A stretch of DNA of 10,874 nt from a virus: UHGV virus genome UHGV-0126855; one strand, given 5' to 3'. The position numbers and the translations under genes are program-made. Below, in pieces: positions 2,604 through 7,578 of the stretch (positions within the stretch are counted from its first letter, which is position 1; the number at the start of each line of letters is the position of its first letter). Under the pieces are notes generated by a model. That model saw only the letters and a list, made by a program, of their open reading frames with translations. It was not told the origin of the DNA and did not search any database.

Positions 2604-3320
<717 letters not shown>

Positions 3321-3417: not shown

Positions 3418-3618
3418 ATGGAACAACGCATAACCCTGAAAGATTATGCAATACGCTTTGGGCAAACCAAGACGGCTAAAGATCTCGGCGTATATCAAAG
3501 CGCGATTAACAAGGCCATTCATGCAGGCCGAAAGATTTTTTTAACTATAAACGCTGATGGAAGCGTTTATGCGGAAGAAATAAAGCCCTTCCCAAGTAAC
3601 AAAAAAACAGCTGCATAA
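3418..3618 (+). CDS. cro: Cro repressor (lambda-type, 66 aa)
   Basis: Translation [42 protein letters not shown]… is near-identical to lambda Cro from memory. Confidence 0.95.
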
Positions 3619-3755: not shown

Positions 3756-4052
3756 ATGACACAAGCAAGTTACAGCAAGCCAACACAGCGAGAAATTGAT
3801 CGCGCAGAAACTGATTTACTCATCAACCTGTCAACGCTTACCCAGCGTGGTCTGGCAAAGATGATTGGCTGTCATGAATCGAAGATAAGCAGAACGGACT
3901 GGAGATTTATTGCTTCGGTCTTGTGTGCTTTCGGAATGGCATCAGACATCAGTCCGATTAGCAGGGCTTTTAAGTATGCGCTTGATGAAATCACAAAGAA
4001 AAAATCCCCGGCCGCCACCGAGGATTTTAAGCAAATTGATATGCAATTCTGA
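3756..4052 (+). CDS. cII: CII-like transcriptional activator (98 aa)
   Basis: It sits in the cII position after cro and nutR. The C-terminus [18 protein letters not shown] resembles lambda CII (…KKRPAATERSEQIQMEF); the N-terminal part is divergent. Confidence 0.7.
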
Positions 4053-4084: not shown

Positions 4085-4231
4085 ATGACAAAACAACTCA
4101 GTCCTTACCAGGACAAAATTCACAAACACATACTACGTGATCGCTTCCTGTCCAGCTTCAAGCAGCCTGGTCGATTCCGGGCTGAGTTGGAAAAAGTGAA
4201 GCTGATGCAGAAGGAGAAAGGTCATGAGTAA
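4085..4231 (+). CDS. Small hypothetical protein (48 aa) between cII and the O-like gene
   Basis: ATG 4085 is preceded by SD aggag (4075-4079). The [51 protein letters not shown] overlaps the O-like start by 8 nt. It is absent from the ORF track (presumably below its length cutoff). Confidence 0.4.
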
Positions 4232-5123
4232 CATATCTAATCTAGCCGAAGCCAGAGAGGCCAGAAGGCTACAACAACCGCATCAAAGCAGCGGTAAGGG
4301 GTATGCCTTGCTGCACCGTAAAATTATGGATGTGCCGTTTTACAAGGACGCAGAAGCAGCGCATCTGTGGGTTCACTTAATCCTCAAAGCAAAGCATACG
4401 CCTGAGTATGTAATGACTGACGCAGGAGAAATTCTGGTAGGCAGAGGGAAGCTACTTGGCGGTAGAAACTCTCTGGCGTTTGAAACAGGACTCAAACCAG
4501 ATCGCGTTCAGTACCTGCTTAGAAAGTTCAAAAAACTCGGCATGATTGACTGGGTTTCACACGGTAAATTCTCAGTTTTCTCGGTAGAGAAATATGACGA
4601 TTATCAGTCAAATTTTGTACCAGCAGATTACCAGCAAATTACCACCTCAAAGCCAGCAATACCAATGCCTGCAAGCAATACTGTACCAGCAGATTACCAG
4701 CAAATTACCACAGATAAAGAATATAATAATATTATCTCTAATACTGACGTATTAGAGAGTGCCACAGCAGACAAAAAGTCTGACAAGAAAAAACCTTCCG
4801 TCAGCTGTCAGGATGTTGTCGATGCTTACCACGAAATCCTTCCTGAAGCGCCAAGAATCCGCGCACTGAATGACAAGCGTAAAAACCAGATCCGAACGTT
4901 CTGGCGCAAAGCCGGAGTGATAACCCGCCAGCTTGACGGGCATGGGTTCACGATGCAGGACTGGAGAAATTATTTGAGCTACGTAGGCGAAAATTGCCGA
5001 TGGATGTTCGAAGAACGCCCAAACCATCAACGCGGAACCGTCTGGCACAAAAAGGGATTTGATTTCCTGCTTAACGACAATACCTACCTGAAAGTTCGTG
5101 AGGGTGAACACGATGACCGATAA
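4224..5123 (+). CDS. O-like replication initiator (299 aa) with the origin embedded in its coding sequence
   Basis: It occupies the O position upstream of the helicase. SD aaggag (4211-4216) precedes ATG 4224. Internal iteron DNA encodes the repeated peptide [10 protein letters not shown]. The stop overlaps the helicase start. Confidence 0.7.
4616..4745. repeat. Putative replication origin: iterons plus an AT-rich tract
   Basis: Identical 30-bp direct repeats tgtaccagcagattaccagcaaattaccac lie at 4616-4645 and 4682-4711. Each holds two ~13-bp sub-iterons CCAGCA(G/A)ATTACC, with a degenerate copy ccagcaatacc between them. The AT-rich agataaagaatataataatattatctctaatact follows. Confidence 0.6.
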
Positions 5124-7578
5124 TTTTTATGCGCCGCCCCATAGCATCGAGGCAGAGCAGGCGGTGATTGGTGGATTGCTTCTGGATGATGACAGCAGTG
5201 AGCGCGTCCAGAAAGTTCTGGCGATGCTGAAGCCTGATTCATTTTACAGCCGACCACACAAAATCCTTTTCGAAGAAATAACCAGAATGCACCGGGAGCA
5301 AAAGCCAGTAGATGGCCTGACGCTTTTCGATGAACTGGAGCGTAAATCGTTAACGGCGTCTGTTGGCGGTTTTGCTTATATCTCTGAGATCGCAAAGAAC
5401 ACGCCAAGCGCAGCAAACATCGTTGCCTATGCAATGCAGGTTCGTGAAACCGCAATGGAACGCTACGCCATCAACCGCATGACTGAAGCGACGGAATTGC
5501 TCTATTCCCGCAACGGAATGACTGCAACGCAGAAGTACGAAGCTATTCAGGCGATTTTCACGCAACTGACAGATCATGCAAAAACCGGATCGCGTCGCGG
5601 CCTTCGTTCATTTGGTGAGGTCATGGAAGACTGGGTTAGCGACCTTGAGAAGCGATTTGACCCGTCAGGCGAACAACGAGGAATGAGCACAGGGATCCCA
5701 TCGCTGGACAGGATGCTGTCACCGAAAGGTCTGGTGAAAGGCTCTCTGTTTGTCATTGGCGCTCGCCCTAAGATGGGGAAAGCGCAACCGCTTAATTCAC
5801 GCATTTTGCTTGCTGATGGTTCATGGACAACATTTCGTGACGTATGTGTTGGAGATTCCCTAGCATCAGTGGATGGACAACCATCATTCGTGTCTGGAGT
5901 TTTTCCTCAAGGGGAGCGAGATATTTACCGAGTTACGTTCTCTGACGGAAGAACCGTTGATTGCGCGGATGATCATTTGTGGGAAATTCATAGTAACCGT
6001 ATTACCGGTGGCGTTGATGTTGTAGACACCTGCCGCCTACGGGACATGATGGAATGCGTTCGCTATCAAAGCCGCATTCATGTTCCTGGTATTAGCGGTG
6101 ACTTCGGATTGCCTGTTGATTTAGGGATTAGCCCATGGCTGTTAGGTGCGTTACTTGGCGATGGAAATCTTGCAGGTACGCCACGAATCAGCATGACGGA
6201 ACCATACATCATTGAGCGAGTAAGATCTGAAGTGGGTGACGATATTGAAGTCAGACATGTTTCTGGCTGCGATTACTCCCTATCTCACAAGTTTAGCCGC
6301 AAATTATCTCTTACGCGGGTTATGCAACGGATTGGTATCTACGGCCGGATGTCAGAGATTAAAATTATCCCGGATATTATTTTTTCTGCTGATAAGCAAA
6401 CTCGTATTGATGTTCTATGCGGATTACTTGAAACCGATGGTTGGGTTGAAGGAAATAATGCCCTGCGCTTTAGCTCGGCAAGCAAGTTCCTGTCAGATGG
6501 TGTAAAGCGGCTGGTGCATTCTCTTGGTGGCGTGTGTCGTATGACAACCAAACAGGAGCCGAAATTCAGTTATAAGGGAGAAATGCGCAAAGGTATGGAT
6601 GCCCATATTTGCGCAATCAGGTTGCCTGATGAGGTTCTATCACACATAAAATCTCCACGCCTGAAGCAAAAATTCACTGCAAAACGCATCAAAACAAGTG
6701 CGCCTGTTATCACGTCGGTTGAGTATATTGGACGTGAAGAGTGCATTTGCATCATGGTATCCCACGAGAGACATTTGTATGCAACTGACGGATACATTCT
6801 AACCCACAACACCACGCTATACAGCCAGATGGCAATCAACTGCGCAGTGTATGAGAAAAAGCCCGCTCTGATATTCAGCCTTGAAATGCCAGGTGATCAG
6901 ATACTGGAAAAACTGGTAGGGCAGAAGTCTGGTGTTAACCCGAATATTTTTTACCTTCCGGCGACAAATGACGCCGATGACGGCTATCAGGGTGATTACG
7001 ATGGTGACTTCAACAGGGCGATCGAAACAGCCAATCGCTTGAGTGAAATCGACATGCTTTACATCGACGACACGCCGGGATTATCTCTGGCTCAAATCGT
7101 CAGCGAAAGCCGTCGAATCAAGCGAGAAAAAGGATGTGTTGGCATGATTCTGGTCGATTACCTGACACTAATGACCGCTGAGAAGGCCGATCGCAACGAC
7201 CTTGCTTACGGCATGATCACCAAAGGACTGAAGAACCTTGCCAAAGAGCTTGATTGCGTTGTTGTGCTTCTGACGCAGCTTAACCGCGCACTGGAAAGCC
7301 GAACCAATAAACGCCCATTACCAAGTGACTCGCGCGATACAGGGCAGATTGAACAGGATTGCGATTATTGGGTGGGGATCCATCGTGAAGGTGCTTTTGA
7401 TGACAGTGTTCCACCTGGTGAAACCGAACTAATCCTTCGTCTCAATCGTCATGGCAATACCGGCACGGTGTATTGCATTCAGGCAAATGGCGCTATTTAT
7501 GACACAGACCAACAGTCTGCTGAAATGCGCCGCCGTGAACGCGAGGAGCCGCAGTCCAAGAAGAAAGGAGGATTCTGA
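5113..7578 (+). CDS. DnaB-family replicative helicase, intein-containing (alternative start GTG 5098)
   Basis: N-terminus PPHSIEAEQAVIGGLLLD and the C-terminal half (KPALIFSLEMPGDQ…LTQLNRALESR…) align with E. coli DnaB from memory. The Walker A GARPKMGK|TT is split by a 343-aa insertion. Excluding the insert, the protein is about 470 aa. Confidence 0.9.
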   Translation: MTDNFYAPPHSIEAEQAVIGGLLLDDDSSERVQKVLAMLKPDSFYSRPHKILFEEITRMHREQKPVDGLTLFDELERKSLTASVGGFAYISEIAKNTPSAANIVAYAMQVRETAMERYAINRMTEATELLYSRNGMTATQKYEAIQAIFTQLTDHAKTGSRRGLRSFGEVMEDWVSDLEKRFDPSGEQRGMSTGIPSLDRMLSPKGLVKGSLFVIGARPKMGKAQPLNSRILLADGSWTTFRDVCVGDSLASVDGQPSFVSGVFPQGERDIYRVTFSDGRTVDCADDHLWEIHSNRITGGVDVVDTCRLRDMMECVRYQSRIHVPGISGDFGLPVDLGISPWLLGALLGDGNLAGTPRISMTEPYIIERVRSEVGDDIEVRHVSGCDYSLSHKFSRKLSLTRVMQRIGIYGRMSEIKIIPDIIFSADKQTRIDVLCGLLETDGWVEGNNALRFSSASKFLSDGVKRLVHSLGGVCRMTTKQEPKFSYKGEMRKGMDAHICAIRLPDEVLSHIKSPRLKQKFTAKRIKTSAPVITSVEYIGREECICIMVSHERHLYATDGYILTHNTTLYSQMAINCAVYEKKPALIFSLEMPGDQILEKLVGQKSGVNPNIFYLPATNDADDGYQGDYDGDFNRAIETANRLSEIDMLYIDDTPGLSLAQIVSESRRIKREKGCVGMILVDYLTLMTAEKADRNDLAYGMITKGLKNLAKELDCVVVLLTQLNRALESRTNKRPLPSDSRDTGQIEQDCDYWVGIHREGAFDDSVPPGETELILRLNRHGNTGTVYCIQANGAIYDTDQQSAEMRRREREEPQSKKKGGF
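5782..6810 (+). other. Intein (~343 aa) with a LAGLIDADG homing endonuclease domain, inserted in the helicase P-loop
   Basis: The insert lies between GARPKMGK and TT(LYSQMAINCAV). It ends in THN followed by Thr +1 (nt 6802-6813). Two LAGLIDADG-type motifs are present: LLGALLGDGNL (aa 348-358) and LCGLLETDGWV (aa 440-450). The N-terminal boundary at Ala229 is inferred to within a few residues. Confidence 0.75.

Follow-up and report, generated by a model that had tools for sequence, protein, structure and literature searches.

A putative iteron-type replication origin inside the O-like initiator gene of a lambdoid prophage

The direct repeats carried inside the O-like gene described here are, with high probability, the replication origin of a lambdoid prophage of the HK022/HK620/VT2-Sakai type and the sites at which its initiator would bind. 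This reading comes from the comparison of sequences, and our confidence in it does not extend in equal measure to its details: we are much less sure of the stoichiometry of initiator binding and of the role played by the palindrome that accompanies the repeats. The element itself is already known, and GenBank records of near-identical O genes present it as a putative origin; consequently, its value as a discovery is small. What this analysis adds is the observation that the repeats are built of units of 11 bp, translated in three frames, a link between the N-terminal domain of the initiator and the sequence of these units, a co-varying palindrome, and the variation in the number of repeat blocks. 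The value that remains is that of an origin type whose iterons are built otherwise than those of ori-lambda and whose function is putative.

Why should such an element attract interest? The replication module to which it belongs drives many prophages of E. coli and Salmonella, including Shiga-toxin phages such as VT2-Sakai, the Stx1 converting phage and the PA series, and it is common in Shiga-toxin and P22-like prophages. The stretch that covers the O and helicase genes matches, at least partly, 410 of 5,426 complete E. coli genomes. Replication of Stx phages has been reported to be necessary for efficient toxin production (PMC7466680). The published biochemistry that could be found deals with lambda-type O proteins only (those of lambda, P27 and 933W), and the searchable literature yielded no experiment on an HK022-type origin. 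An experimentally defined origin of this type would fill this gap.

Anatomy and annotation of the repeats

The window, i.e., the whole 10.9-kb stretch of DNA that was analysed, comes from a lambdoid prophage and represents its early-right region. Its left part holds a sieB-like gene and then a gene for a ParA-like ATPase. These are followed by cI (2604-3317, minus strand), cro (3418-3618), cII (3756-4052), a small orf48-like gene, the O-like replication initiator gene (4224-5123, plus strand, 299 aa), a gene for a DnaB-type helicase and finally the nin genes, with ninB, dam and ninG placed after the helicase gene. The helicase gene (5113-7578, plus strand) encodes a phage helicase of the DnaB family, the analogue of P22 gene 12 and HK022 P. 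It gives Pfam matches to DnaB, DnaB_C, Hint and LAGLIDADG, and it scores 554 bits against the NCBIfam model TIGR03600 phage_DnaB (cut-off 498.65). The gene is split by an intein of 343 aa (nt 5782-6810); this insertion aside, 475 of the 478 residues aligned with HK620 P are identical.

An earlier description of this DNA, made from its letters alone (hereafter the sequence-only reading), had placed two identical 30-bp direct repeats inside the O-like gene, and both the repeats and their location are confirmed. The exact 30-mer TGTACCAGCAGATTACCAGCAAATTACCAC occurs twice on the plus strand, at 4616-4645 (block 1) and 4682-4711 (block 2), with a start-to-start distance of 66 bp and a 36-bp spacer (4646-4681, plus strand) in between. 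Both blocks lie within 4224-5123, in the part of the gene that encodes the interdomain linker. The 30-mer is the longest exact direct repeat of the window, and the runner-up measures 14 bp; when the window was simulated 200 times with a first-order Markov model, the longest repeat had a mean length of 12.6 bp and was at most 17 bp long.

Each repeat had also been described as two sub-iterons of ~13 bp, and this part of the description has to be replaced. Tandem Repeats Finder detects a period of 11 bp in both blocks, with 2.5 copies at 4618-4644 and 3.0 copies at 4684-4715 and the consensus TACCAGCARAT, and the proposed 13-mers overlap by 2 nt. Each block is made of about three head-to-tail 11-bp units, the third of which is imperfect. 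In block 1 the units are TACCAGCAGAT (4618-4628), TACCAGCAAAT (4629-4639) and TACCACCTCAA (4640-4650), this last one extending 5 nt beyond the 30-mer; in block 2 they are TACCAGCAGAT (4684-4694), TACCAGCAAAT (4695-4705) and TACCACAGATA (4706-4716). The spacing of the blocks equals 6 x 11 bp, and all of the units stand in one common 11-bp phase. A search for dyad symmetry detected no inverted repeat within the blocks; the 11-bp units are asymmetric direct repeats.

The octamer TACCAGCA occurs seven times in the window, compared with an expectation of 0.24, and four of these occurrences fall within the repeat blocks. The three that lie outside the origin were taken as chance occurrences; one of them sits inside the terminator hairpin after the helicase gene. 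The sequence-only reading had further placed a degenerate copy, CCAGCAATACC, between the two blocks. This copy is indeed present in the window (~4653-4663), but it is not conserved in the relatives and sits in the most variable stretch of the gene. It was rejected as an iteron for this lack of conservation; the spacer that holds it contains the lowest-identity windows of the gene.

The gene and its repeats have close counterparts in annotated phages. Over all 900 bp, the DNA of the O gene is 98.8-99.4% identical to that of HK022, HK620, VT2-Sakai and mEp235 (99.3% for HK620 and 99.2% for VT2-Sakai), and the identity to the gene annotated as replication protein O in many Stx phages falls in this range too. 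HK022, HK620 and VT2-Sakai have the same gene order and the same origin without any meaningful difference, whereas their helicase genes are free of the intein that the helicase gene of the window carries. The two-piece 'rep_origin' of the HK620 record (AF335538, 10369..10464) coincides base for base with both 30-mers, and so do the features 'ori iteron 1' and 'ori iteron 2' of the VT2-Sakai record (AP000422), which are the counterparts of block 1 and block 2, respectively. These two records mark the 30-mers only, and not the 11-bp units, the AT-rich tract or the palindrome. The homologous repeats are labelled a putative origin in the Sf6 record and a "putative origin of replication" in that of phage L. 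In the genome paper of phage L, TGTCCAACGGA is given as an 11-bp repeat present in six imprecise copies, and these copies are read as the likely origin. All of the database labels are worded as 'putative' or 'by similarity', i.e., they are inferences in their turn.

Repeats as DNA, the encoded peptide and the initiator

A first question is whether the repetition is a matter of the DNA or of the protein. The sequence-only reading had pointed to a repeated decapeptide in the protein linker, and this is found at residues 132-141 and 154-163. It is conceivable that the repeat is merely a duplicated peptide in a flexible linker, kept or tolerated there while its DNA has no cis-acting role. The repeat is in frame and encodes the same decapeptide twice, and the linker, which is modelled with very low confidence, seems tolerant of changes in length, given the natural variants with one, three or four blocks. 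However, the length of the unit is 11 bp, which is not a multiple of 3, so that each of the three units of a block falls in a frame of its own; the repetition is therefore a property of the DNA alone. Successive units are translated as PA, YQQ and ITT in the window and as CPT, VQR and LSN in Sf6. In every homolog the units give unrelated residues in this way, an outcome that a constraint on the peptide cannot yield.

The homologous gene was gathered from 12 annotated phages and 80 viral contigs. All of these relatives share the block-and-unit design, the usual form being two blocks ~66 bp apart with about three 11-bp units each, and in the two-block relatives an Asn-rich, AT-rich stretch comes after the blocks. 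The best repeat has a spacing of 66 bp in 10 of 13 phage genes; the other three contain imperfect copies in the same aligned layout. The sequence of the unit varies by group. Its core is TACCAGCA in the clade of the window, TACCAACA in Pantoea phage PA-1 and at locus L061, TGTCCAGCC in the Enterobacter CobraSix clade, TGTCCAACG in Sf6, L and ENT47670, and TGCCAACA in phages of Klebsiella, Erwinia and Yersinia.

The number of blocks varies as well, and alleles with one, three or four of them occur in both the TACCAGCA and the TGCCAACA types. One block is present in L050 (a reading frame of 283 aa), three in L048, P0002 and P0121 (321 aa), and four in P0001 (343 aa) and in P0127 (327 aa, with an N-terminus that is 16 residues shorter). 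The alleles differ in steps of 66 bp, or 22 aa, as would be expected of unequal recombination between blocks.

How strongly is each part of the gene conserved? Segment identities were computed on ten relatives of the TACCAGCA type. At third codon positions the identity is 0.67 in the N-domain, 0.87 in block 1, 0.57 in the spacer, 0.98 in block 2, 1.00 in the AT tract and 0.54 in the C-domain; the amino-acid identities of the same segments are, in this order, 0.86, 0.89, 0.38, 0.98, 0.81 and 0.70. Third codon positions hardly vary in the blocks, yet the peptide of the spacer between them drifts freely, and this again argues against a repeat maintained for its peptide. Codons 155-179, which span block 2, the AT tract and the palindrome, hold 11 of the 12 most synonymously conserved 11-codon windows of the gene. 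The least conserved windows of this size make up the spacer, whose length of 36 bp is nevertheless kept. Such a pattern favours purifying selection that would act on the DNA of the blocks and of the AT tract.

A last point against a mere duplicated peptide is that the sequence of the unit follows the DNA-binding domain of the protein. AlphaFold predicts an N-terminal winged-helix domain (residues ~25-128, pLDDT ~80-89), in which a helix-turn-helix is formed by helices 81-88 and 92-104 and accompanied by a beta-hairpin wing. Residues 129-190 form a linker of very low confidence (pLDDT 26-33), which is probably disordered, and residues 195-295 form a helical C-terminal domain. The protein databases gave mostly near-identical clusters from E. 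coli; the model therefore derives from a shallow alignment of 10 sequences (mean pLDDT 65, pTM 0.39) and is trustworthy within each domain only. Residues 131-179, which the origin DNA (4616-4758) encodes, belong to this linker, the least structurally constrained part of the protein.

Searches with Pfam, NCBIfam and PDB sequences left the O-like protein unnamed, giving only a weak match to DUF7376 and sub-threshold winged-helix matches, with no helpful hit in PDB; the Pfam family Phage_rep_org_N matched residues 75-127 below its threshold (E = 0.21, 12 bits, cut-off 23.3). A Foldseek search against viral models returned two-domain proteins named "replisome organizer", "DnaD domain-containing" and "replication initiator". 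The succession of an N-terminal winged helix, a linker and a helical C-domain is that of replisome-organiser or DnaD-like initiators.

The relation between this protein and the repeats was evaluated on 19 representatives. The distance between iteron cores correlates with the distance between N-domains (Mantel r = 0.62, p = 0.0002) and not with the distance between C-domains (r = -0.09, p = 0.80), and the N-domain and C-domain distances are themselves uncorrelated. Physical linkage alone could account for part of the association between N-domain and iterons. The predicted recognition helix also varies with the type of unit: DRVKSLLRKF occurs with TGTCCAGCC, NKVKSLLRSF with TGTCCAACG and DRVKYLLNKF with TGCCAACA, and the protein of the window, whose units are of the TACCA type, contains DRVQYLLR in this position. 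The match between the differences in this predicted helix and the iteron type is suggestive only.

Recombinant genes add to this picture. For Sf6, mEp234, HK106, HK633 and other phages, the match to the window (~98% identity) begins only at nt 4714, and the recombination junction is thus located 3 bp after block 2. So sharp a junction at the boundary between block 2 and the AT tract suggests that only such recombinants may be viable. The Erwinia phage Eho59 combines the N-domain, iterons, AT tract and palindrome of the window's family with a C-domain of the lambda-O type, which is 70% identical to lambda O residues 178-299, and its next gene encodes a lambda-P-like loader in place of the DnaB-type helicase. 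The comparison supports the idea that the N-domain and the iterons would constitute a specificity module, separate from the C-domain, according to the two-module logic of lambda O, whose N-domain binds the origin and whose C-domain deals with the helicase system. Altogether, the comparative evidence favours a function of the repeats that would be exerted at the DNA level and linked to the initiator, and a duplicated peptide devoid of any role in cis is scarcely credible.

The AT-rich tract and the palindrome

According to the sequence-only reading, the repeats are followed by an AT-rich tract of 34 bp. The stretch in question, 4712-4745, does contain 85% A+T, compared with 54% window-wide, and it is the sole such tract within a gene in the window; its last 11 nt, however, are the left arm of a palindrome, which adjoins the AT tract on the right and was absent from that reading. 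The AT-rich tract can be delimited as AGATAAAGAATATAATAATATTA (4712-4734, plus strand), where 21 of the 23 bases are A or T, and is proposed to be a DNA-unwinding element. At this position every homolog has an Asn-rich AAT/ATA stretch.

The palindrome, TCTCTAATAC-TGAC-GTATTAGAGA, is 24 bp long (4735-4758) and has perfect arms of 10 nt (4735-4744 and 4749-4758). Folded as single-stranded DNA, it yields -7.8 kcal/mol for the plus strand and -8.4 kcal/mol for the minus strand, with z = -4.1 and -5.2, respectively. It is kept in all of the relatives reached by the scan, with perfect arms of 9-11 nt and at least eight different arm sequences. In 14 distinct sequences, pairing is found in 91.6% of the cells; shuffled sequences reach 62%, and sliding the partner gives 36-50%. 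In the same set, 9 of the 11 pairs are altered on both sides, one-sided changes of the G-U type number zero, and all 39 cells with a both-side change are Watson-Crick. This pattern of covariation fits better with a DNA palindrome, be it a hairpin or a cruciform, than with an RNA stem. We propose that the palindrome belongs to the origin element, and infer for it a role as an extruding structure.

Could the AT tract and the palindrome act instead in RNA or in transcription, as a leftward (antisense) intrinsic terminator or as an mRNA hairpin that affects the translation or stability of O? Read on the minus strand, the hairpin has TAATATTATT after it, so that a simple terminator pattern is satisfied, and the phage L record labels the homologous site as a minus-strand terminator. 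However, the stem is weak, only 3 of its 10 pairs being G-C, Rfam gave no family match, and a palindrome stands at the equivalent position of the origin in both lambda and P22. In addition, the scan returned one terminator-like site when 1.1 were expected from shuffles, and no promoter-like site for a leftward transcript was found in 4200-5200. Because the covariation is strictly Watson-Crick, with none of the one-sided changes that an RNA stem would admit, because the search for a leftward promoter nearby gave none and because the match is at chance level, a terminator is judged very unlikely.

Related to this is the question of whether replication starts at the repeats at all. They might bind the O-like protein, or another factor, for the sake of regulation (autoregulation, copy control or handcuffing, exclusion of related phages), with replication starting elsewhere. 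The repeats of iteron plasmids serve for the initiation of replication as well as for its limitation. Phages with the lambda replication module are inhibited in their replication by cloned lambda iterons along with oop transcription (PMC3349717), and nothing computed here demonstrates strand opening. Against a regulatory role of this kind, the repeats adjoin an AT tract and a palindrome that are equally conserved, in the order that is found in the experimentally defined ori-lambda. No other cluster of the 11-bp units occurs elsewhere in the 10.9-kb window. DnaA boxes are absent near the repeats, their total in the window is below the chance expectation, and they form no cluster that would hint at another origin. 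We give a solely regulatory role a small chance of being correct, and continue with the repeats as the probable origin.

Proposed mechanism and relation to known origins

How might this origin work? Binding, unwinding, helicase recruitment and the role of the palindrome are modelled here on the analogy of lambda O and ori-lambda (PMC7466680) and of SPP1 G38P and oriL. The N-terminal winged-helix domain of the O-like protein would bind the head-to-tail 11-bp units through the core TACCAGCA. About three units per block, in two blocks 66 bp apart, would present these sites in a common 11-bp phase, roughly one helix turn. Contacts among the bound initiators would deform the DNA, and on supercoiled DNA this deformation would open the neighbouring 23-bp AT-rich tract. 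The 24-bp palindrome may then extrude as hairpins, stabilising or marking the opened region. The C-terminal domain would bring the phage's own DnaB-type helicase, the product of the next gene, and host primase and polymerase would come after the helicase.

The units have no dyad symmetry, and for this reason the mode of binding to the dyad iterons of lambda and P22 cannot simply be transferred to them. One may go a step further and suppose that this origin works unlike ori-lambda, with head-to-tail arrays of the initiator on 11-bp units in two in-phase triplets rather than dimers on dyad iterons, and with the palindrome as a structural signal (a hairpin for helicase loading or priming) rather than a sequence-specific site. 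We offer this last proposal tentatively, as a possibility that falls somewhat short of being probable.

Several known systems can be set beside this element. The origins of iteron plasmids are served by Rep proteins with tandem winged helices and have iterons of 17-22 bp, spaced by ~22 bp, outside the rep gene. They are not matched by the window, where the units are 11 bp long, grouped 3+3 and placed inside the gene. SPP1 G38P with oriL and the staphylococcal pSK41 RepA come closer in plan, as replisome organisers whose origin is inside their own gene; for SPP1, oriL has been described as embedded in the gene of the initiator G38P (PMC5737612). However, the match to their family profile (Pfam Phage_rep_org_N) stays below the threshold, their hosts are other ones and the anatomy of their repeats is different, and SPP1 uses a separate helicase loader, G39P.

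Phages L, ST64T and Sf6 (gene 18 / gene 43) encode homologous proteins, with 65-66% identity overall. Their C-domain, AT tract and palindrome are nearly identical to those of the window, and the architecture is the same, with two blocks of three 11-bp units and a spacing of 66 bp. The differences concern the units, TGTCCAACG instead of TACCAGCA, and the predicted recognition helix, ..NKVKSLLR.. instead of ..DRVQYLLR..

P22 is lambdoid too, and like the window it pairs an initiator with its own DnaB-type helicase (gene 12). Its annotated origin is inside gene 18 and consists of repeats, an AT-rich tract and a short palindrome, CCCCCT-AA-AGGGGG, located after this tract. In contrast to the units of the window, the four ~20-bp repeats of P22 have internal dyad symmetry (TTTACCnnATCGGTAAA), as in lambda. 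The phage L protein, which is a close relative of the window's, is only 25% identical to P22 gp18 (phage L genome paper).

With regard to lambda itself, the sequence-only reading had recognised the layout of ori-lambda in this gene, and the comparison with the relatives, with lambda (NC_001416) and with P22 supports the resemblance. The proteins are distinct: lambda O and the O-like protein have no detectable sequence similarity, Pfam Phage_rep_O gives no match to the O-like protein even at E<=5, and hhalign against lambda O, with the chimeric Eho59 left out, returns a probability of 0.3%. A 91% hhalign match of the C-domain to lambda O was discarded, as it was caused by the chimeric Eho59 sequence in the alignment. 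The iterons and the partners are distinct as well. Lambda has four iterons of 18-19 bp that are imperfect inverted repeats, each a site for an O dimer, whereas the window has asymmetric 11-bp direct repeats in two triplets 66 bp apart; the partner of lambda O is P, which loads host DnaB, whereas the partner here is a DnaB-type helicase of the phage.

What the two have in common is the plan. In ori-lambda, as in the window, the origin occupies the interdomain part of the initiator gene, and its initiator-specific repeats come first, an AT-rich tract second and a palindrome with a 4-nt spacer third (NC_001416). The lambda palindrome, at 39162-39189, has 12-nt arms and comes directly after the AT-rich tract. 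In lambda O, origin binding resides in the 162 N-terminal residues (cited in PMC2629481), and there, too, the N-domain and the repeats are exchanged as one specificity module, apart from the C-domain. Iterons, AT-rich tract and palindrome make up a three-part layout that the window has in common with lambda and P22.

Repeat blocks and iteron cores around the probable origin

The number of iteron blocks in the O-like gene is not fixed in nature. The usual number is two, yet natural alleles (viral loci L050 and L048; O-like proteins P0001, P0002, P0121 and P0127) carry one, three or four, and this variation is present in two different iteron types. The step is 66 bp (22 aa), i.e., one block plus its spacer. 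A 321-aa form of the protein accounts for 26 of the protein clusters listed, almost all of which come from E. coli.

Another conserved patch of the same gene lies outside the origin: at codons 23–33 (4290–4322), third-codon-position identity reaches 100% in the ten-member clade sharing the window's iteron type. The patch may represent a further cis element, or it may mark a recombination boundary that the members have in common.

The iteron core TACCAGCA occurs seven times in the window, against 0.24 copies expected by chance. Three of these copies are isolated outside the origin, at 430 (− strand), 7612 (− strand, within the terminator hairpin 3′ of the helicase gene) and 8394 (+ strand), and they are probably coincidental.

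A natural chimera is found in Erwinia phage vB_EhrS_59 (L009, 830–1780). Its N-domain, iterons (TGCCAACA/TGCCATCA), AT tract and palindrome are of the HK022 family, while the C-domain is of lambda-O type, with 70% identity to lambda O residues 178–299; the next gene encodes a lambda-P-like loader in place of the DnaB-type helicase.

The helicase intein and its distribution

The DnaB-type helicase gene (5113–7578) is interrupted at about 5782–6810 by an intein of 343 aa, with matches to Hint and LAGLIDADG homing-endonuclease. The insertion falls in the Walker A loop (GARPKMGK/AQPLNS...YILTHN/TTLY), and the intein starts with Ala and is directly followed by Thr. The flanking helicase parts are 99.4% identical to the intein-free P protein of phage HK620 (478 aa).

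A megablast search with the intein DNA against 50,697 phage records returned no match. Among 5,426 complete E. coli genomes, the full-length stretch of O and intein-helicase is present in 16, for which RefSeq holds the N-domain and C-domain helicase proteins as separate entries.

A ParA-like gene beside cI

Downstream of cI, a gene on the − strand (1304–2347) encodes a ParA-like P-loop ATPase of 347 aa, whose match to a candidate defence-system model, PDC-M28B, is no more than marginal (E = 0.0011). The gene is preceded by about 3.5 tandem copies of a 19-bp repeat with a GCAGGAG core (2392–2457), which could serve as an operator or a centromere-like site. In lambda, by contrast, the position of this ATPase gene is taken by rexAB.
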